Source of the DNA: Candidatus Sungiibacteriota bacterium
GTDB taxonomy: Bacteria; Patescibacteriota; Minisyncoccia; Sungbacterales; JACQCQ01
Assembly: GCA_016201505.1 (NCBI GenBank)
Contig: JACQCQ010000002.1
Location: 76,750 to 140,749 of the forward strand
Direction: 5' to 3'
DNA length: 64,000 nucleotides
In this document: in pieces, positions 49,690-59,778 of the stretch
How the letters are laid out: the number at the start of each line of letters is the position of its first letter
Numbering within the stretch: position 1 is the first letter of the stretch
The notes under the pieces: generated by a model
Databases searched by the model: none
What the model was told of the DNA's origin: nothing
The model's input: the letters and a program-made list of their open reading frames with translations, nothing else
Translations under genes and position numbers: made by a program

Positions 49690-50438
49690 GCGGGTTACGA
49701 GTCTATCCAAGAGTCAGCTTGACTTGCATTACGCTACTATAGTAGTATTTCTGAAGCTAGATTAAGGTAATTATTCGAAGCTATTTGATCAAATGCAAAC
49801 GTACTTCCAATTGAATACCACTGCGGCCTCGGATGAAAGAACATAAGCCCCTCTCGTAGGGAGACTTAGGTAGATGAGGTCGCCGGAAGGCGATTTTTCG
49901 TTCGAACGTCTTTTTAAAAACATTTGATTTCCCACCGAGAAATCAGATTCGCCACTCTCCTCGCGATCGCTTCGCGAACCGTGGTCGCTTCGTCGAGTGA
50001 GCGTTCTAAAAAGATATTCTTCACTTGAGCTTCGTAGGAAAGGTCGCTTCGCTCCCCACATTCAAGAAGTTGGAGATGACGACTAGTTAACTAGAAAACT
50101 AGAAAACTAATCGGTGTCTCTGAAAACGTTTTCGTACGCTTACGGAAAAAGTAGGAGGCAAGATTTTTGACATAAGGCTAATAATTGCAAAAGGGTAATA
50201 AACCGATGCTTCGCATCGGAATGTCTAATTTTCAATTTCTAATTTCTAAACTTTTTACGCCACATCGCTTCATTAGAAATTAGGTATTAGGAATTTGGAA
50301 TTTCCGATGCGGAGCATCGGAAAATTGTATTTTCAGTAAACTCTTTGGAGTTTATTGAAGCGTGATTCGATACAAATTTGTTATGTACCTGAATTGTGGA
50401 ATGTAGAAGTAACTAGACGAGAAGAGGGGAGACACTCT

Positions 50439-50675
50439 ATGACGATCGAAGCAGTGCGGAATCTGGAGAAGCGTCTCGGCGACGTAATCCATGTGGAGCT
50501 TGAGAAATTCTCGCGGCAGCACGCTTTCGTGGAGGGGCGCGGCTGGCTCTTGAAGGACGCTGACCACCACCTTCTTTTCCGGACGTCGCAGCAGATGGCT
50601 AGGGTGGCAGCTGGTATCTGCGCTCATCTCTGCACAGAGCGCCAGCCAATCTCGAAGCCGAGAAGAAGCACGTAG
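50439..50675 (+). CDS. hypothetical 78-aa GC-rich ORF in the rRNA leader region
   Basis: An RBS-like 'gagggga' precedes it. No motif. It may be non-coding leader sequence. Confidence 0.2.
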   Translation: MTIEAVRNLEKRLGDVIHVELEKFSRQHAFVEGRGWLLKDADHHLLFRTSQQMARVAAGICAHLCTERQPISKPRRST

Positions 50676-51133
50676 CGTTCATCATGGGGAAGGTCAGTAC
50701 GACTTCCCCTCCACAATTCAGGTACATACAAACATAAGTCGAATCGCAAATGGTTCGGCAGGCTCACCACAAGTGAATCTGTCGAACTTTCTCTCGATGA
50801 TTCTTGAGACTCGTAATTACATTACTTGTCCCGAGCGAAGTCGAGGGATCTCACTCGTTCTCTGATGAATGTCAGAGGACAAGAAAATAAAAAGCGGTTA
50901 TTAAGGGCGCATGGTGGATGCCTTGGCTTTAAACAGCGATGAAGGACGTAGCGTGCTTGCGATAAGCATCGGGGAGGTGGCGAGCAACCTTTGATCCGGT
51001 GATGTCCGAATGGGGAAACCCTAGGGGAGTAATGTTCCCTAACCCGTCGTGTAATAGCGATGTGGAGTCAACCTGGTGAAGTGAAACATCTCAGTAACCA
51101 GAGGAAAAGAAAACAAGTTGCTTCGCAACTTTT

Positions 51134-51203
51134 ATCAGCGAATAGCGAATCCCGTACGAATAAGCGAATTCGTTTATTCGAAAAGATTCGTAATTCGTTG
51201 ATG
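51134..51203 (+). repeat. IVS hairpin element copy A (71 nt)
   Basis: The sequence is atcagcgaatagcgaatcccgtacgaataagcgaattcgtttattcgaaaagattcgtaattcgttgatga. It is identical to the copy at 55191–55261. Confidence 0.75.
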
Positions 51204-51610
51204 ATCGAGCGCAGTGAACATTCCGTCAGTAGCGGCGAGCGAACGCGGAACAGCCTAGAGGAATCAGTTTGCTAGTTTACTAGTTCGCTGGTTCCAGTTG
51301 TAAGTTTAGTTCGTAAAAGAGCAATCTTTTGAAGAGTGTAAAAATTAAGACTTCGTTAGGAGAATGGTCCTGGAACGGCCAACCACAGAAGGTAATAGTC
51401 CTGTACACGAAAACGGTCTTATACTCTTGGAACTTTACTTGAGTACTGCCCAGTATGACGACTGGGTAGGAAGCAGGGAGAACTAGTCTCCCAAGGCTAA
51501 ATATGTTTAAAGACCGATAGTGAACCAGTACCGTGAGGGAAAGGTGAAAAGCAGCCCGGTGAGGGCGGTGAAATAGTACCTGAAACCATGTGCTTACAAG
51601 GAGTCGGAGC

Positions 51611-52110
51611 TCGCTTCGCTGACGAAGCGGTAGATTCAAAATCTTAAAACTGCAAAATCAAATATTTCCTTTTGTGTATCTGAATTGAAAAAATAAGGAG
51701 GTGTCAATGGCATACCCCCAAGATGAAATCGCACGCCTGCGGGAAATGCTGCGGCTTGATCAGATGTCGCCGGAAGAGCTGGTACGGTTTCTTAAACTGT
51801 TTTGGGAGATTACGGAGAGCAAGGTTCTCGAGCGCGGCGCCGAAGGCAAGGATGTCTTTAACGCCGGGTTGGCTGAATGGCTGCTCACGATTGCTGTAGT
51901 TGCCATCGTGCGGTCTTTTATTGATCGCGCTGACAAGAGAGCGATTGTCCGAACCCTCAAAGCCTCGTTACCGGCGAAGATTTGGGAAGTTTGCCGGCCG
52001 CTTTGCGAGCCCTTGCTCTCAATTCCCGGGGAGTGATCCGTCAGCCGACGGACTCCCCGTTCAATTCAGATACATAAAAATAGTTTTGAATTTTGTAGTT
52101 TAGTTTTTAA
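51611..52110 (+). mobile_element. helix-25 intervening sequence carrying a 110-aa ORF, flanked by perfect 12-bp inverted repeat gtatctgaattg / caattcagatac
   Basis: The insertion follows 'cttacaaggagtcggagc', the classic H25 IVS site. The inverted repeats lie at 51682–51693 and 52060–52071. Confidence 0.6.
51707..52036 (+). CDS. hypothetical 110-aa protein encoded inside 23S rRNA IVS (MAYPQDEIARLREML…)
   Basis: It has a strong RBS (AAGGAGG, 5 nt spacer). It is followed by the hairpin gatccgtcagccgacggactcccc. No known homing-endonuclease motif. Confidence 0.45.
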   Translation: MAYPQDEIARLREMLRLDQMSPEELVRFLKLFWEITESKVLERGAEGKDVFNAGLAEWLLTIAVVAIVRSFIDRADKRAIVRTLKASLPAKIWEVCRPLCEPLLSIPGE

Positions 52111-52389
52111 ATTTAGCGACGCGTCAGCGGAGCGAGTAACGGCATGCCTATTGAAGAATGAGCCAACGAGTGTATGGAGATTGCTTGCTTAACCCCGCCC
52201 TTTGCGCAGTAGCGCAAAAGGCGGAACTGACAGTCTACAGTCTACCGACTACAGCAGATGTTGTTGTTCATGCGGTAGTCAGTAGTCCGTGGTCAGTAGT
52301 CCGCCCCTTGTTAGTGAACAAAGGACGGGGGGAGGCGCAGGGAAACCGAGTGTTAACAGCGCGTAAGCACCTCACTTTGTTCGGTGCCT

Positions 52390-52461
52390 ATCAGCGAATA
52401 TCGAATCCAAAACGAATAAACGAATTCGTTTATTCGAAAAAGATTTGTAATTCGTTGATGA
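52390..52461 (+). repeat. IVS hairpin element copy B (~90% identical to A)
   Basis: atcagcgaatatcgaatccaaaacgaataaacgaattcgtttattcgaaaaagatttgtaattcgttgatga. Confidence 0.7.
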
Positions 52462-53030
52462 CCGAGCGAAGCGAGGCTGCATGTAGTCTTCATACGACCC
52501 GAAACCAAGTGAGCTACCCATGGGCAGGGTGAACTTTGAGTAACATCAAAGGGAGGCCCGAACCGGTTGGTCGTACAACGCCTTCGGATGACCTGTGGGT
52601 TGGAGTGAAAAGCTAATCGAACTTGGAAATAGCTGGTTCTCTTCGAAATAGCTTTAGGGCTAGCGTCAAATCACACCGTAATGGAGGTAGAGCACTGGAT
52701 GGACTGTAATGGGGCAACCCAGGCAGTCCAATCAAACTCCGAATGCCGTTACGCGTTATTTTGGCAGTCAGCAGGCGGGGGCTAAGCTCCGTCGTGCAAG
52801 AGGGAAACAGCCCAGACCGCCGATTAAGGTCCCTAAATCAATGCTAAGTGTATAAGGCGGTGGAATTTTTAAAACAGCGAGGAGGTTGGCTTAGAAGCAG
52901 CCATCCTTTAAAGAGTGCGTAACAGCTCACTCGTCAAAAGATTCTGCGCCACAAATGTAGCGGGGCTAAGCATTGTACCGAAGTCGCGGGTTGCGCGCTT
53001 CACTTTTGTTCAGCGCGCTCATCATCGAAT

Positions 53031-53116
53031 AGCGAATCACGAACGAATAAACGAATCACCATAACCGTATTCGTATATTCGCAGCAAATTCGTTATTCGC
53101 TGATAGAGCGCCGAGC
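53031..53116 (+). repeat. helix-45 IVS hairpin (diverged palindromic variant)
   Basis: The sequence is atcatcgaatagcgaatcacgaacgaataaacgaat…attcgttattcgctgatag. It lies at the canonical H45 IVS position, between 'gaagtcgcgggttgcg' and 'gagcgccgagcagc'. Confidence 0.6.
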
Positions 53117-54034
53117 AGCAGCGAGGCGCGTAACGGTAGAAGAGCATTTGCATCAGCAGTGAAGGAGGACCCGCGAGGGCCTCTGGAGCGGTGCGAAGAG
53201 AGAATGTTGGCACTAGTAACCGCAAGTTAGGTGAGAATCCTAACCGCCGAAAGTCCAAGGTTTCCTTGGCAATGCTAATCAGCTAAGGGTTAGTCGGTCC
53301 TAAGGGAATGGTGAAAACCGCACCCGATGGATACACGGTTAATATTCCGTGACTCGAGTTTTGATCGATGGCGGGACGGAGCGTTGTACATTCTATGGAT
53401 TATTGGATTTCCATTTCTGTTATGAGGAAAGCGCGTAGGCAAATCCGCGCGCTGGGTTAGACCCGCTTCCAAGTAATGGGATAATGCGTTTCTTCGGATT
53501 CGCAAATAGAAAGGAGCACGCTTCCCAGAAAAACGTCTAAGATTATCTTGACTCGAACCGTACCGCAAACCGACACAGGTGGACTAGTGGAGAACACTAA
53601 GGCGAACGGGTGAGACCTCGTTAAGGAACTCGGCAAAAAAGCGGCCGTAAGTTCGCAATAAGGCCTGCCTCATTGAGGCTGATAGAAGGAAAGAAAGCAC
53701 TGCACAGTGTTGGTTTTTGAATTTGTGTTTTGTGCAACGTATTCTCGAAAAGCGTTTGCATTTGTTCCAGCGACAAATGCAACTCGCCAAGCTCGCAAAA
53801 ACTTTTTGTTTCGACAAAAAGACCAAGCTTTTCGCTCGCTTGAGCGTTTTCTTAAATACGTTTGCACCGATATGGATTCTTGATCGAACACTGTGCAGTG
53901 CAAAAGAGAAAGGGCAGATTTTTGCTGATGCAAAAATCTGAAACTAGAAAACTAGAGCCGCGAAAGCGGCGTAACTAGAAAACTATAGTTGTAACTCTGA
54001 ATTGCGGAGTTAAATAGTTCGCTGGGGAAAAGGT

Positions 54035-54130
54035 ATGAACTCGCAAGGAGAAGTAACGCCACTGGCGTTGATGGGACTTGCGACCGTTTTTGCCATATAT
54101 CTTCTCTGCCAGCTCATCTGGGCGGGATAG
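54035..54130 (+). CDS. 31-aa hydrophobic mini-peptide MNSQGEVTPLALMGLATVFAIYLLCQLIWAG
   Basis: An RBS-like 'ggggaaaagg' precedes it. It lies inside the rRNA insertion. Confidence 0.3.
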   Translation: MNSQGEVTPLALMGLATVFAIYLLCQLIWAG

Positions 54131-54142
54131 TGGAGGATATGA

Positions 54143-54271
54143 ATGTCCAGGCTGGCGGCATATCCGCTGTTCCTTGTCTGTTGGACTCCGTTCATGATTG
54201 TGATCGGGTTCATCATCGGGATCATGATCGAGCGATCGGGTCGGATTCTTGCGGCCGAGGAGGAGGTATGA
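54143..54271 (+). CDS. 42-aa single-TM mini-peptide MSRLAAYPLFLVCWTPFMIVIGFIIGIMIERSGRILAAEEEV
   Basis: The RBS 'tggagga' precedes it. Its stop overlaps the next start (ATGA). Confidence 0.35.
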   Translation: MSRLAAYPLFLVCWTPFMIVIGFIIGIMIERSGRILAAEEEV

Positions 54272-54390
54272 GAACAGCCATCGGTTTTATGATCACTATT
54301 GGGATCATGGCTGCTGTTGTGATCATCGATCGGTGGTGCAAGCGGCGCCTGCCGATGCGCGGCATCTTCGGGCCGTATCGGCAGGCATAA
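54268..54390 (+). CDS. 40-aa single-TM mini-peptide MRTAIGFMITIGIMAAVVIIDRWCKRRLPMRGIFGPYRQA (paralog of previous)
   Basis: The RBS 'gaggaggagg' precedes it. It shares the 'IGF.I.IGIM' core with the upstream peptide. The hairpin gatccgtcagttgacggagactcccc follows. Confidence 0.35.
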   Translation: MRTAIGFMITIGIMAAVVIIDRWCKRRLPMRGIFGPYRQA

Positions 54391-55190
54391 GGAGACGAGG
54401 GAGTGCGATCCGTCAGTTGACGGAGACTCCCCCAACCCTACTAAAAATGTAGGGCCGCAATTCAGGGTTACAACAGGTCTAAGTTTAGGCGCGATTGCGC
54501 GAGCGAGCGGTAAGTTCTTAAAGAAAGGAGAAGTACGCGGACCGAAGAGGATCTGCCGAATCGAGGGCAGCACATGTGCATACCGGAGTAGTCGACGGTC
54601 ATTCGGCAAGACCTTACGCCCCTCCGCATAGTTCTTTGATCGCTCGTGCAAAAAAATATGGAGGGCGCAGACCTTCGGGTCTCGGTATAGGCAGGTAGCC
54701 TGCCCCTCCGCCATTCGCCAACTGGTGAAGCCAACTGGTGAAGCCAACTGGTGAACTCGAGCAGAGAGTCTCCCGCCAGGGTCTCTTCTCTGTAAAAGAT
54801 GGGCGGTCCCGCCGCCCGTTACTCGAGCACCCCAGCGGCCTCCCTAGCCCGGGGCCGCTGGGGTTCGAAAATCACTATGTCGGGCGCGACGTGAGCTCTC
54901 CTGGTAGGGGATTGCGTCGACTCACCCGGCAGAACGCGGCGGCGGTTCCCCCCGGAGCCGCCGCCGTCGTAAACACTTTTCTCTTATTTTTCTCCTCGAA
55001 ATTCGAAGTCGGATTTCGATCCTTCTATCAGCCTCTTTGAGGCCGCAGCGAAAGATTCTCTGGCGACTGTTTACCAAAAACACAGGTCCCTGCTAAACAC
55101 GTAAGTGGATGTATAGGGGCTGACGCCTGACCAATGCGAGAAGGTTAAAGATTGTGGTTGCTTCGCTCTTGCTTCGTAACATCAGCGAAT

Positions 55191-55261
55191 AGCGAATCCC
55201 GTACGAATAAGCGAATTCGTTTATTCGAAAAGATTCGTAATTCGTTGATGAAAAGCTGTGG
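55191..55261 (+). repeat. IVS hairpin element copy C (identical to copy A)
   Basis: The 71-nt sequence is identical to 51134–51203. Confidence 0.75.
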
Positions 55262-55329
55262 AGCGTGAGCGGAGCAGCTAACGGTCCCAAGCCCTCGTCA
55301 ATGTCAGCGATAACTATAAGTAACGATTG

Positions 55330-56140
55330 TAGTTATAAAATTTGGCTATATGTTCCCAATTTGTCTGCGAGCGTTAGCGAGTGGCTAACAAATCGCAATC
55401 CCGTGGCCTTACAGTCACGAGACAAAACAAATTCGGGAAACCCGAAGTCACGCCGCGCAATACGAAAGTGTTGGTTGCGGGGGAAGGCTTTGGGGACTGG
55501 AAAACCCGCGAATGCAGAAGTACTTCAATACCACGTAGTATTGAAGTAACAATCTTCTGCCGATTCGTGAAGGTAAGATGGATGTATTCCGCTCGCAATA
55601 TGAACGGATGTATCCGCCGAAGCCTTGGCGAAGGCGGACAATCAGCAGGAAAGATTCTAATTGGTAAAAATTAGAAAATCCTCAGAGACTACACGCCAAA
55701 CTCTTCAATGCACTCGAGTCTGTCGAGCTAATTGGATAGATGATATAGTCCGAACTCTATGGTGACATAGAGAGTTGACCCGAGAGAGGGTCAGAGTAAC
55801 ACTAAATGAATCGTTCTAAGGTGAATAACACTGCCTTAGTAAAATCTAGCTATATCGGTGAACACCTTACACTTTAATACTTTAAAGTATTAAAGTGTAA
55901 GACAATACCGAGGCAACCCCGCCAAAATTTTGCACGAGCAAAACTTAGGCGGGTGAGTCCGTAGAGACTACACGCTAGACTCCAATCCGCAGTTGGCGGA
56001 GGAGAAGATATAGTCCGGCCTCTATGGCGACATAGAGAGATGCAGAGAAATCGTGCATCCGGATTCATGATTCATAATTCTTGCTTGCCCTTCCGTAGCT
56101 CTAGAGAGCAAAGGAGGGATTCATGATTCTAGTAACAATT
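55330..56140 (+). mobile_element. ~0.8-kb ORF-less insertion (group I intron-like) at the 23S 1917–1931 (I-CeuI site) region
   Basis: It interrupts 'taactataa | …gcgtaattccttgtcgggtaag'. It contains an internal ~100-nt duplication (55680–55800 versus 55958–56060). It also contains the 36-bp perfect palindrome cttacactttaatactttaaagtattaaagtgtaag (55866–55901). Confidence 0.45.
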
Positions 56141-56739
56141 CGAGCGTAATTCCTTGTCGGGTAAGTTCCGACGTGCACGAAAGGCGTAACGACTGGAGAA
56201 CTGTCTCAACGAGGTGCCCGGTGAAAATACAATATCGGTGAAGATGCCGATTACCCACAGATAGACGAAAAGACCCCGGGAGCTTTACTGCAGCTTGATA
56301 TTGGCAATGAATACTTTATGCGTAGCATAGATGGGAGACTTTGAAGTCGTGGTTTCGGCCATGATGGAGTCGCCAGTGAAATACCATTCTTAAAGAATTC
56401 TTTGTCTAACTTGTAGAGACGAAACTCTATGCAGACAGTGTCTGGCGGGCAGTTTAAGTGGGGCACTTGCCTCCCAAAAAGTAATGGAGGCGTTTATTAA
56501 GGTTGGCTAGCGCCGGATGGAAATCGGCGTCGTCCCGTAAAGGGAAATGCCAGCTTGACTGCAAGGCGGGTATGCCGCGCAGGTGCGAAAGCAGAACTTA
56601 GTGATCCGATGGCTATGGTTGTTTAGTTTACTAGTTTCGGTCTTTATTGACCTACTGGTTTTCTAGTTTTCGAACTAGTTAACTAGAAAACTGGTGAACT
56701 GATCAATTTCTTGCTAGAACAAGGCCAAAGCTCATCAGC

Positions 56740-56770
<31 letters not shown>

Positions 56771-56903
56771 GCTTCCAAGAGTTCATATCGACGAAGCGGT
56801 TCGGCACCTCGATGTCGGCTCGGCTTATCCTGGAGGTGGAGAAGCTTCCAAGGGTTTGGCTGTTCGCCAATTAAAAAGTCACGCGAGCTGGGTTCAAACC
56901 GTC

Positions 56904-57741
56904 AACAAAAGAACCCGAAAATGACATCGAAACATTCAACAAGTTTTTGATAGGAGCTTGTTTGAAACACACGGCGGCCCCTGGTAGCAATGCCGGGGAG
57001 CGAAACCCGTAGAATCCCAAGGGGGTCCGGGTAAGAAAACCGACTCATATCGATGAAATCCACGTATGCATTCAACCTGTCATATGTTAGGATAATATCG
57101 AGGGAAGTCGTGTATGTTGCAATCGTTAACGCAAAATCAAAGGGCATATATTGCAGGTTTTCTTGATGGAGATGGAAGCATTTATGTGCGAGCAAAACCA
57201 AACCCTACTTATCGGTTTGGCTTTCAAATTGCTCCATATATAGTATTTTTCCAGTCACAATCTAGTCAGGAAAGATTTGGGGAGATATGCAAGTTGATTA
57301 GCGTGGGACATTTACGCATTCGAAGTGACGGTATTCTTGAGTACATCATAAATCGTATTGATGAAATCAAGATGTTGCTGGAATGTGTTCGTCCCTTCGC
57401 AATTCTCAAAAGGCGACAGATAGATTTGATGTTGAAAATAATTGAATCAAAGTCGCAAGTAGAGAACGAAGACGATTTTGAGAAACTTCTTCAACTAGTA
57501 AATTCTTATCGAGAATTAAACTATTCTAAGAAGAGAAAGCAACGTTCATTGACCCCGTAGAGACTTGTCGTGAAAGCGGCAGAGTAATTCAGAAATGATT
57601 TGCTAACACGTCGGTCACCCATTAAATGTAGATACTGTTTAATGGGTTGGTGGTATAGTCCAATCCCTCTAGTAATAGAGGAAGGTTAAGCATTTAGTAA
57701 CCTTAATTCTTGACTCTAAATTCTTAATTCTAGTAAACAGC
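56904..57741 (+). mobile_element. group I-type intron at 23S position 2593 (I-CreI homing site) encoding a LAGLIDADG endonuclease
   Basis: The exon junction is 'gggttcaaaccgtc | gtgagacaggttgg', which corresponds to the E. coli sequence AACGTC^GTGAGACAG. Confidence 0.7.
57114..57560 (+). CDS. single-motif LAGLIDADG homing endonuclease, I-CreI-like
   Basis: The motif is 'YIAGFLDGDGSIYVRAKPNPTYRFGFQ'. Overall similarity extends to I-CreI ('LAGFVDGDGSIIAQIKPNQSYKFKHQ…LVLKIIE' versus 'IDLMLKIIE'). Confidence 0.8.
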   Translation: MLQSLTQNQRAYIAGFLDGDGSIYVRAKPNPTYRFGFQIAPYIVFFQSQSSQERFGEICKLISVGHLRIRSDGILEYIINRIDEIKMLLECVRPFAILKRRQIDLMLKIIESKSQVENEDDFEKLLQLVNSYRELNYSKKRKQRSLTP

Positions 57742-57883
57742 GTGAGACAGGTTGGTCTCCTATCTTCTGTGGGCGTAGAAATTTGAGAGGGCTTCTGGAC
57801 AGTACGAGAGGACCTTCAGGAACAAACCTCTGGTGTACCAGCTGTTCCGCCAGGAGCATCGCTGGGTAGCTATGTTTGGTTGT

Positions 57884-57914
<31 letters not shown>

Positions 57915-58294
57915 ACGCCTCAAGATAAGATTTCATAGATCCCTGAGAGATTATCAGGTTGATAGGGTGCAGGTGTACATGGAGTAATCCATTCAGCCGA
58001 GCACTACTAATAGATCATCACCACTTTTTATTTTCCTTTGCCCGCCGAAGCGTTATGCGACGGCAGGACGGTGAGAATAATACAATTCTTGCCCGCCTAA
58101 GTTTTTCGTTAGAAAAATTTTGGCGGGGTTTATTACCCTTTTGCAGTTATTAGCTTTGAATGTGCGTTTCTCCAAAATAAAACTTGCCGACCTCGAACGC
58201 GCCGGACTCGGCCGCGAGGTCTGAGAGGGAAAGGAGAGCCTCTAAGCTCTTATCCTACCCTCTCTCTAACACCGAGTTTCGTATTTTAAAATTC

Positions 58295-58336
58295 CATCTA
58301 GTACAATATATCCGATCGGATATATTGTACTAGATG
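58295..58336. repeat. 42-bp perfect palindrome catctagtacaatatatccgatcggatatattgtactagatg in 23S–5S spacer
   Basis: Read directly. Confidence 0.8.
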
Positions 58337-58500
58337 AGTGAGGAATAATAGATAGCAATAATATAAAGCATTGTTTTGGTGGCTTACAGGTACGTGGCAC
58401 CACCCCCGCCTGCGCTAAGGCTTCGGCGGGTAAGCCTTTCTCTGCTACACAACGCAGTTGTGCCACGGGACTTAGCATTCCGACTGTGCCCCGTACCAAA

Positions 58501-58621
58501 TTTGCTATTTGCTGGTGTCTTTCATCTTTTGGGTACCACCCCTTCCCATTCCGAACAGGGCCGTTAAACCAAAAGTAGCCGATGATACTCGGAGGTTTAG
58601 CCTCCCGGGAAAGTAGGTGAT
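58501..58621 (+). rRNA. rrf: 5S ribosomal RNA
   Basis: '…gggtaccaccccttcccattccgaacagggccgttaaacc…gccgatgatactcggagg…gggaaagtaggtgatgccagcat' aligns with the 5S consensus. This includes helix I pairing of gctggtg with caccagc. Confidence 0.6.
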
Positions 58622-58883
58622 GCCAGCATATAAAAGATTTGGTTCGGGGACCCCGAGCAATCGCTCCCGCGATATTTGGAGGCAGGGGGCAGGGTCTCAC
58701 TTCGGAAAGCATAGCAGGGCGAAGTCCCGCATCGAGCTTTGCTCTGGTGCGGGATAGCTGCCGCCAGAACAATGCTTTTTATTTTTCCCACGAAGTGGGA
58801 AAAATAACCCTGAGCGCAGTTGAAGGGTCACACTATTCTCATTATTCCTAATTCCTGATTCATAATTCATAATGAAGGGCATG

Positions 58884-58994
58884 GATCCCGTTAGAAGCCG
58901 CGATCGTCGAATGATAGGATAAAATATAACTGATTTAAATATCATTAACACTACGCAGATTCCGCGCAGAATCGCGATCTGCTTCTAACGGGAT
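58884..58994. mobile_element. solo MITE-like element of the 15766–16347 family
   Basis: atcccgttagaagccgcgatcg…(60 nt)…gcgatctgcttctaacgggat. Its 3' terminus ends at the ATG of the next gene. Confidence 0.6.
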
Positions 58995-59778
58995 GGACTG
59001 GCGTACCGCTCGACAATTGACCGTGATTTTTATCGCCGTTTTGGTTGTCGGCGGCATTCTTTTTTTTCTCACCTACGGCTATTTCCATCAGCCGGCATCG
59101 TGTACTGATAACAAGAAAAATCAGGGAGAAGAAGAAGTTGATTGCGGCGGCCCCTGCGAGCCGTGCGCCTTCAAGCATCAAAAGCCAGCAGAAGTTTTTT
59201 TCGCCCGAGTTTTGCCGTTGCGGCCGGGGAACTATGATGTCGTGGCTGAAATTCAAAATCCCAATGATCATTTAGCAGCGAATCCCTTAGCCTATCGGGT
59301 GCATGTGTTTGATGATCACGGAGTTGAAATTGCAACGCGGGAAAATCTAACCTTCGCCTATCCCAGTGACAAGATCTATATCGTTGAAAGCAACTTTCTA
59401 ACCGAGCGCAAACCAGTTCACGCGAGCCTTGAAGTCATTGACCAGGCAACTTTGTGGACATTCACCAATGACTTGCGTCCGGAATTTCAAATTGGCAATA
59501 AAACCTATGTAGTTTCGGCCGACAATGAGGTCAAAGTGACGGCTGATGTGATGAGTCGAGCTGATTTTGGGTTTAATCAAGTTGAAATCCGGGTGGCCCT
59601 GCTCGACAACGCGGGAAATGTCGTAGGGGCGGCTAAAACCATTCTGGATCATGTGAGTCCCCGCCAGTCTCGGCGGGTTGAATTTACCTGGCCGCAGGCG
59701 CCACAAGATTTGGTGGCTCACGTCGACATTGAAGCCAAAGCCAACGGCCTCGATAAAACCAATGTCTTTCTGCCGTAG
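58993..59778 (+). CDS. hypothetical membrane-anchored/secreted protein
   Basis: 261 aa with an N-terminal TM helix and a Cys-rich 'CGGPCEPCAF' segment. Confidence 0.45.
   Translation: MDWRTARQLTVIFIAVLVVGGILFFLTYGYFHQPASCTDNKKNQGEEEVDCGGPCEPCAFKHQKPAEVFFARVLPLRPGNYDVVAEIQNPNDHLAANPLAYRVHVFDDHGVEIATRENLTFAYPSDKIYIVESNFLTERKPVHASLEVIDQATLWTFTNDLRPEFQIGNKTYVVSADNEVKVTADVMSRADFGFNQVEIRVALLDNAGNVVGAAKTILDHVSPRQSRRVEFTWPQAPQDLVAHVDIEAKANGLDKTNVFLP

Follow-up and report, generated by a model that had tools for sequence, protein, structure and literature searches.

A probable composite insertion with a nested cassette of small open reading frames at helix 63 of a Candidatus Sungiibacteriota 23S rRNA gene

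The 23S ribosomal RNA (rRNA) gene of Candidatus Sungiibacteriota bacterium lies in the 64,000-nt stretch of DNA analysed here (the window; contig JACQCQ010000002.1 of assembly GCA_016201505.1), and the tip of its helix 63 (H63) carries a 1,377-nt insertion (1.38 kb; 53667-55043). This segment is probably a composite, non-intron insertion of the intervening-sequence (IVS) or expansion type, with a nested cassette of open reading frames (ORFs), and we infer its release by cleavage of its stems. The locus belongs to known kinds, namely the rRNA insertions known from the candidate phyla radiation (CPR) and the ORF-bearing IVSs. What is distinctive is a kilobase-scale, nested H63 insertion with a conserved scaffold, which holds one member of a set of three paralogous cassettes with a hairpin shell, all in the same rRNA operon.

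The insertion can be viewed as three layers. The first would be a scaffold (basal stem, domain 1, central helix, and small hairpins) that is inherited in the lineage and under selection for RNA pairing. The second, cassette B, would be seated where the nearest relative among the matches listed has a short hairpin loop, and the third would comprise hairpin tips at the distal end, rich in guanine and cytosine (GC), bearing repeats, and possibly grown by slippage. The whole segment would be transcribed inside the pre-rRNA, and its long double-stranded stems would be cut by RNase III, as in classical bacterial IVSs, the pieces not being re-ligated. Such cleavage would remove the insertion from the ribosome and could free the cassette RNAs, and translation of their ORFs might follow. 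For cassette B this would be coupled translation, since the preceding ORF masks each downstream Shine-Dalgarno (SD) sequence.

Site, fold, and relatives of the helix 63 insertion

By blastn, window positions 53520-53664 align to E. coli 23S positions 1560-1704 and positions 55063-55148 to 1770-1854; the H63 site (E. coli positions 1704-1770) thus measures 1,398 nt in the window versus 65 nt in E. coli. Tsurumaki et al. (2024) define the rRNA insertion sequences of CPR genomes as insertions of 100 bp or more by comparison with the rRNA of E. coli, and the H63 segment falls within this definition. Two features by which IVSs are recognised are present: the tip of a variable 23S helix is replaced, and complementary termini form a long duplex, with basal arms of 30 nt (87%) and a 20-bp stem around cassette B. 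A reading made earlier from the sequence only had placed a long-stem-closed insertion in H63, with which the alignment agrees, and its perfect 12-bp stem (gctgatagaagg/ccttctatcagc) is present as part of the 30-nt arms. The insertion had also been described as much more GC-rich than the rRNA exons (approximately 48%-50%); this holds for the 3′ two-thirds (52%-66%), whereas 53700-54000, at 40%-43%, lies below them.

The insertion as a whole folds far below its shuffles (z −17.5). In the minimum-free-energy (MFE) structure, the predicted order is basal stem, domain 1, central helix, small hairpins, a 487-nt ORF domain, a GC-rich 3′ part, and a terminal hairpin (Table 1), the central helix enclosing all other distal parts. 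On inspection of the sequences, the purine and pyrimidine tracts of this helix lie at matching places in two related loci, L072 and L061. The threefold tandem repeat (GCCAACTGGTGAA) and the long GC stems pointed out in the sequence-only reading are found at 54717-54755 and at 54829-54864 and 54937-54966, respectively. Its suggestion of a structured RNA or ribozyme remnant holds as far as strong structure goes, and no Rfam intron or ribozyme model matches inside. One Rfam match in domain 4, to BjrC80, scored 33 bits against a cut-off of 80 and was disregarded as sub-threshold. The leader bears the motif AACTAGAAAACTAG(A) upstream of the 23S gene (50088-50109), and the H63 insertion has it twice (53942-53988), with a GCCGC/GCGGC hairpin between these two copies.

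Table 1. Features of the 23S rRNA gene, the helix 63 insertion, and the three cassettes (window coordinates; + is the strand as read)
Feature	Position	Strand	Remarks
Cassette A	50384-50727	+	Perfect arms of 18 bp; located in leader, 160 nt upstream of 23S gene; 78-aa ORF at 50439-50675
23S rRNA gene	50889-58030	+	About 7.1 kb; about 4.2 kb of insertions at at least 8 sites; Rfam LSU matches and blastn against E. coli rrlB
Cassette C	51670-52079	+	H25 insertion site; 20-nt arms; SD AAGGAGGTG; 109-aa ORF at 51707-52036
H63 basal stem, 5′ arm	53667-53696	+	Pairs with 55014-55043; 30 nt, 87% complementary
Domain 1	53697-53903	+	Conserved branched hairpin with TTCCAGCGA loop; fold z −9.4; homologous in L061 and L072
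Central helix, 5′ strand	53904-53913	+	AAGAGAAAGG; pairs with 54976-54985 (MFE)
Hairpin CAGATTTTTGC/GCAAAAATCTG	53915-53940	+	Present in L061 too
Cassette B	53988-54474	+	487 nt, in H63 insertion; 20-bp arms 53988-54007 and 54455-54474; core CTGAATTG/CAATTCAG; three mini-ORFs
Mini-ORF1	54035-54130	+	31 aa; transmembrane-like; weak SD GGGGAAAAGG; codon score −4.06
Mini-ORF2	54143-54271	+	42 aa; transmembrane-like; GGAGG SD pairs with 54096-54105
Mini-ORF3	54268-54390	+	40 aa; transmembrane-like, basic tail after that segment; ATGA overlap with ORF2; SD pairs with 54170-54176
3′ nested hairpin of cassette shell	54399-54432	+	GGGAGTGCGATCCGTCAGTTGACGGAGACTCCC; common to cassette C at 52027-52058
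Domain 3	54476-54716	+	GC-rich, weakly structured; fold z −1.8; no match in any collection searched
Tandem repeat GCCAACTGGTGAA x3	54717-54755	+	13-nt unit, 100% identity
Domain 4	54756-54975	+	Hairpins rich in GC, among them 54829-54864 and 54937-54966; 54717-55013 folds with z −6.1
Terminal small hairpin	54996-55019	+	Directly 5′ of basal stem 3′ arm; analogous hairpin in L072
H63 basal stem, 3′ arm	55014-55043	+	Complementarity and MFE structure

A metagenome scan with a lineage-specific H62 motif returned at least 120 stretches, and the spacing from this motif to the next conserved block was measured in approximately 118 related H63 regions. Among the matches listed, most loci have a spacing of 40-47 nt, corresponding to an H63 hairpin of 14-20 nt; about 15 reach 100-200 nt through short insertions, and 7, at about 330 nt, contain ORFs of 86-94 aa of the GIY-YIG type or their decayed remains. 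A single locus, L072, has a spacing of 618 nt, with the same basal stem and an unrelated interior, and the window itself has 1,402 nt. The GIY-YIG ORFs (PF01541, E about 1e-17) are intact in L091, L084, L028, and L077 and decayed in L055, L097, and L132. Because relatives carry H63 insertions, including these ORFs, the H63 tip is a recurrent insertion site in the CPR, and reading frames at this place have precedents. Of CPR 23S genes, 82% are interrupted by insertions of 100 bp or more (PMC11270868), and the present gene is interrupted at many sites; the H63 segment is therefore one of many, and the earlier description of a coding module in an rRNA helix as highly unusual is not supported. A decayed GIY-YIG gene within the window's own insertion was considered and rejected, tblastn with GIY-YIG proteins being negative.

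The occurrence of the element among relatives is sporadic, as in IVSs: among the matches listed, the basal stem of the window is common only to L061 and L072, whose rRNA is 86%-95% and 81%-93% identical to that of the window, respectively. Across these three sequences, 92.9% of the cells of domain 1 are paired, and 23 of 56 pairs have changed on both sides, versus 3-5 in slid controls; the observed values were reached by none of 500 shuffles. Loop motifs such as TTCCAGCGA are conserved in domain 1 of both relatives. Since its stems co-vary and its loops are conserved, the scaffold is under selection as RNA. L061 has the closing stem of the ORF domain at the corresponding position, modified by one compensatory change (C-G to U-A), and there the stem encloses a loop of only 41 nt; the ORF-bearing sequence is therefore a nested addition. 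In the comparison of H63 across related taxa, which had been proposed as a check, the basal stem and domain 1 recur in L061 and L072, and the mini-ORF interior is without relatives among the matches listed.

The 618-nt insertion of L072 is also GC-rich distally (880-1200), without sequence similarity to the window, and GC-rich tips may therefore recur in these H63 extensions. No relative of the insertion interior was detected in any collection searched, and no paralogue of the peptides or of the insertion was found in the rest of the window or among the other loci retrieved, except for the cassette shell and a 15-nt motif. A foreign origin from plasmid or phage DNA was also considered; blastn of the insertion against both gave no match, which speaks against it.

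Three hairpin-closed cassettes and their reading frames

As judged from a common shell, A, B, and C are paralogous cassettes in one rRNA operon. Their parts follow the same order: a 5′ arm, an SD, one or more ORFs on the rRNA strand, a G/C 3′ hairpin, and a 3′ arm. The sequence CTGAATTGYGGA occurs four times in the 64 kb as two inverted pairs (50389/50721 and 53997/54465), three of the copies being exact and one (54454-54465) having one mismatch, and a third inverted pair, GTATCTGAATTG, is found at 51676/52073. Within the stems, an 8-bp core (CTGAATTG/CAATTCAG) is invariant in the three cassettes, and the stem positions on either side of it co-vary. B and C have in common the nested hairpin GATCCGTCAGnnGACGGA, flanked by GGGAGT/ACTCCC, of which none is expected by chance; A has a shorter version. 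Cassette B folds with a z of −7.2 when the closing stem is included and of −4.0 for its interior, and the arms of A enclose 309 GC-rich nt. No match to the shell pattern was found in viral contigs.

The cargos are unrelated to one another (z 0.2 for the cassette A protein versus that of C; P about 0.02, uncorrected, for ORF3 versus the C protein). The ORFs of A and C were deposited as hypothetical proteins of a 'Ca. Sungbacteria' metagenome-assembled genome (MAG; MBI3627260.1 and MBI3627261.1, respectively). The cassette C ORF looks truly coding on its sequence: with a codon log-likelihood of −3.92, it equals the mean of the window genes (−3.94 ± 0.06); the ORF fills its cargo (P 0.0035); and it follows a perfect SD (AAGGAGGTG-N5-ATG). 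A single-sequence AlphaFold model of its 109-aa protein is a confident helical bundle, with a predicted local distance difference test score (pLDDT) of 77, that yielded no assignment to a family or fold. No Pfam match at E up to 1, including to PF05635 (23S_rRNA_IVP/S23p), was obtained for ORF1-3 or for the ORFs of A and C.

The three mini-ORFs of cassette B reported in the sequence-only reading are present with their lengths of 31, 42, and 40 aa, as is the ATGA overlap of ORF2 and ORF3. An SD of its own had been ascribed to each; GGAGG sequences precede ORF2 and ORF3, whereas that of ORF1 (GGGGAAAAGG) is weak. The translational coupling proposed at the same time is compatible with the fold, in which each downstream SD pairs with part of the preceding ORF. 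The claim that ORF2 and ORF3 are paralogous could not be established, for BLASTP gives no alignment and the shuffle P of 0.017 precedes correction for 10 comparisons. A 17-nt repeat is found in ORF2 and ORF3, in the same codon phase in both.

Translation of the mini-ORFs is possible on their sequence features but should be regarded as tentative. The number of ORFs in the insertion is ordinary relative to shuffles (P 0.37). Three ORFs that resemble transmembrane (TM) segments, with Kyte-Doolittle 15-residue maxima of 2.4-2.6, arose in none of 2,000 dinucleotide shuffles, and the mini-ORFs tile the cargo of cassette B on the same strand as the ORFs of A and C. Their codon scores (−4.05 each) lie between the null (−4.22 ± 0.11) and genes, being in the top 6% of ORFs from shuffled sequence and in the bottom 10% of gene chunks. 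Weighing against coding, these scores are unremarkable relative to antisense and off-frame ORFs, 23% of which score as high, and the mini-ORFs are absent from L061, the nearest relative among the matches listed. Of the foreign coding module once proposed, then, a discrete ORF-bearing module that looks added remains (the corresponding loop of L061 having 41 nt), and its coding function is held with the reserve just given.

Known systems and competing explanations

The closest analogues are the ORF-bearing IVSs. That of Coxiella comprises 428 nt with a 28-bp terminal stem and an internal ORF and is cut by RNase III (PMC4990558); in bacterial IVS processing generally, RNase III cuts long duplexes and the pieces are not re-ligated (PMC4990558, PMC8708148). 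Like the elements of Coxiella burnetii and Leptospira (PMC4990558), the present cassettes are of a few hundred nucleotides, with 20-30-bp terminal stems in a variable 23S helix, and they share a promoterless internal ORF, a sporadic distribution among relatives, a GC content unlike that of the host, and a proposed transposon-like origin. Unlike them, their cargo is not S23p/23S_rRNA_IVP, and there are three paralogous copies per operon, one in the leader and one nested in the larger H63 insertion. The cassette stems moreover have the invariant 8-bp core, with the common 3′ hairpin in B and C, and cassette B sits at H63 rather than at H9, H25, or H45; excision by RNase III is here presumed.

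In the CPR, rRNA insertions are frequent; among them are uncharacterised types of 500-1,000 bp that are not introns, and the insertions are presumed to be lost from the transcripts (PMC11270868, PMC9297842). The present gene is like those described (Brown et al. 2015; Tsurumaki et al. 2022, 2024: PMC9297842, PMC11270868) in being a single, heavily interrupted 23S gene in which group I introns at conserved sites are mixed with insertions at variable helices that are not introns. Already on record for the latter are GIY-YIG ORFs and 'Long sequences (500-1,000 bp) of unknown function'. Unlike that uncharacterised class as described there, the H63 segment is longer, at 1.38 kb, and has a conserved, covarying scaffold, and a repeated ORF-cassette shell was not found described in the available parts of PMC9297842 and PMC11270868. 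The locus offers a concrete model for one class of CPR insertion, in which a lineage-conserved RNA scaffold would grow by nested hairpin-closed modules, one module type being present in three copies in the operon, each with its own small-ORF cargo. Should the cassettes be released and translated, accessory small proteins of a minimal genome would be expressed from its rRNA operon; should the insertion be retained, the helix of eukaryotic ES27L would here carry a bacterial expansion segment of kilobase scale. Either way, the invariant stem core points to a putative sequence-recognising partner.

Several observations weigh against a composite insertion released by stem cleavage. The covariation and conserved loops of domain 1 fit a ribosome-functional RNA equally well. 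RNase III needs no specific sequence, and processing alone therefore leaves the invariant 8-bp core and the common 3′ hairpin unaccounted for. A full-text literature search that paired 'helix 63' with IVS terms returned no paper with this phrase, and H63 was not identified here as a classical IVS site. On the coding side, the codon score of the ORF in cassette A (−4.19) resembles the null, and the interior of cassette B is more structured than a typical mRNA (z −4.0), its SDs being mostly paired. ORF2 had no homologue among 1.84 billion representatives, one spurious repeat protein aside, and the 86-aa frame containing ORF3 has no words in common with any database protein. As regards mobility, reading of the flanks of A, B, and C revealed no target-site duplication abutting the arms, the flanks instead extending the inverted repeat, and no transposase was seen in the 64-kb window.

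The invariant core and the common 3′ hairpin suggest either a sequence-specific partner or recent copying. Mobile insertion cassettes and miniature inverted-repeat transposable elements (MITEs) are bounded by terminal inverted repeats and contain passenger ORFs without a transposase. A, B, and C are like them in having terminal inverted repeats common to the three copies, a size of 343-487 bp, and different passenger ORFs in their several copies. They are unlike them in that no target-site duplication was seen and no cognate transposase is known, all copies lie in one transcription unit, and the stems show covariation, as though pairing of the RNA or the hairpin were important. A further proposal, doubtful as it stands, is that the cassettes represent an undescribed promoterless class with a sequence-specific hairpin shell (the CTGAATTG/CAATTCAG core, with the 3′ hairpin conserved in two of three), which would colonise pre-rRNA in the leader, H25, and H63. 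Such elements would use rRNA transcription and a double-strand RNase as a platform for expressing small proteins, including the coupled trio of membrane peptides, with the cargo exchanged and the shell kept.

The main rival to the composite insertion is a retained expansion segment, in which the mature 50S subunit would keep the entire 1.38-kb RNA as a flexible arm, the ORFs being by-products of evolution at the RNA level; this we consider unlikely. Eukaryotic ES27L sits on H63. Like it, the present insertion has long, flexible helices that are GC-rich towards their tips and a lineage-specific length that varies by accretion; unlike it, the insertion has a bacterial host, SD-led ORFs, and a repeat common to the non-rRNA leader. 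Departure from the H63 tip with the base of the native helix intact accords with retention, as do the GC-rich, repeat-bearing distal tips and nested growth that appears stepwise relative to L061 and L072, as in accretion. The strong covariation and conserved loops expected of such a segment are found in domain 1 only. Retention fits poorly with CPR ribosomes, which are generally reduced and usually without H63 (PMC9297842, and the H63 spacings among the matches listed), and with the reported lack of CPR insertions in transcripts (Brown et al. 2015, cited after PMC9297842). The perfect duplexes of 18-30 bp are moreover natural substrates of RNase III, the same cassette shell also occurs in the leader, outside mature rRNA, and the ORF of cassette C looks truly coding.

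The mini-ORFs had previously been likened to type I toxins or holins; a membrane-peptide module of this kind, its expression repressed by RNA structure or antisense RNA, now appears distinctly improbable. The three peptides are small, hydrophobic, and single-TM-like, with a basic tail behind the TM segment of ORF3, the SDs of cassette B are sequestered in structure, and a long fold-back stem closes the cassette. Sequestered SDs and a long fold-back stem are also found in hok-type mRNAs. Against this resemblance, searches of Pfam, PHROGs, and PADLOC for toxin, holin, and defence families gave no significant match, and no homologue was found for ORF2 or for the ORF3-containing frame. Neither strand of 53500-55200 contains a sigma-70-like promoter site from which an antisense RNA could arise, as far as a consensus-only scan can tell, given that CPR promoters may differ. 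Finally, the sister cassettes A and C carry unrelated ORFs, that of C being modelled as a helical bundle, and the shell is therefore not toxin-specific.

An unrecognised or degenerate class of intron, spliced out with ligation of the exons, is hardly probable. Group I intron-like insertions do occur in the same gene, at E. coli positions ~1917-1931 and 2594, and CPR rRNA insertions are often called introns (PMC9297842). The Rfam check for group I and II introns and ribozymes, proposed alongside the earlier reading, nonetheless gave no match within 53667-55043: at E up to 1, the search of 50500-59000 yielded no RF00028 match inside the insertion and no group II intron match anywhere in the region searched. 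The insertion also lies at a variable helix tip rather than at a conserved core site, its ends pair with each other, and it contains no homing-endonuclease gene, tblastn with GIY-YIG proteins being negative.

An assembly chimera, with the GC-rich part not contiguous with the rRNA, is very unlikely: the change of GC content inside the insertion and the end of the one matching Logan contig at 54985, 35 nt short of the 3′ junction, are outweighed by that contig itself (run SRR12113409; 1,359 nt), which is 100% identical to 53627-54985 and spans the 5′ junction, the GC-rich part, and nearly the whole insertion, by ends that are complementary over 30 nt across both junctions, by the presence of the 3′ junction sequence in L072, and by the position of the locus on a 211-kb NCBI contig. 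Independent Logan assemblies also hold cassettes A and C, in assemblies from two runs, and B with its 5′ junction, so that the earlier concern over chimerism is allayed.

The 23S rRNA gene and its surroundings

To our knowledge, CPR rRNA genes are the most interrupted known, and roughly half of the insertions in them are not introns and have no annotation. The window contains one large-subunit (LSU) rRNA and one 5S rRNA by Rfam. The Rfam LSU end at 57015 is wrong, as 57690-58030 is the true 3′ domain and matches RF02541 positions 2513-2925. Insertions are found at E. coli positions ~230, 546-617 (H25), 652-669, ~1170, 1704-1770 (H63), 1854-1932, 2400-2414, and 2594.

The group I intron-like sequences of this gene, at ~1917-1931 and 2594, occupy the sites reported for the CPR (PMC11270868). 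Three RF00028 matches were obtained at E up to 1 (55517-55772, 55802-56037, and 57418-57682). The first two adjoin one another in the gap at E. coli 1854-1932, score 38.8 and 49 bits against a cut-off of 50, and have no homing-endonuclease ORF at them; the third, weak at 29 bits, lies in an 837-nt insertion at approximately E. coli 2594 (within window 56904-58030).

Among the proteins encoded in the window are SecA, RodA, and EF-P; the best matches of RodA are CPR MAGs, one of them a 'Ca. Saccharibacteria' MAG at 68% identity. Scans of 20 window ORFs with Pfam or NCBIfam revealed no rnc gene, a result that applies to the window only. An antisense ORF in the flank, used as a probe for relatives, found only one CPR 23S gene, with a minimal H63, and a database search with the 245-aa antisense ORF returned only itself.

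Upstream, a promoter-like sequence (TTGACT-18-TAGTAT) lies at 49719-49748, just 3′ of the terminator of an MscS-like gene. If this is the rRNA promoter, the leader would be approximately 1.1 kb long, with cassette A inside it and a terminator-like hairpin (50301-50323) in between.

Other 23S insertions also contain repeats. An AT-rich palindrome, CGAATAAGCGAATTCGTTTATTCG, constitutes a second repeat family, with copies at 51157-51180, 52413-52436, and 55204-55227 and possibly at 53066-53081, and recurs among the 23S insertions at three or four separate sites (8 matches versus 0.18 expected). A further 23S insertion, at 52230-52301, holds two 7-nt tandem arrays, ACAGTCT x3.6 and GTAGTCA x3.9.

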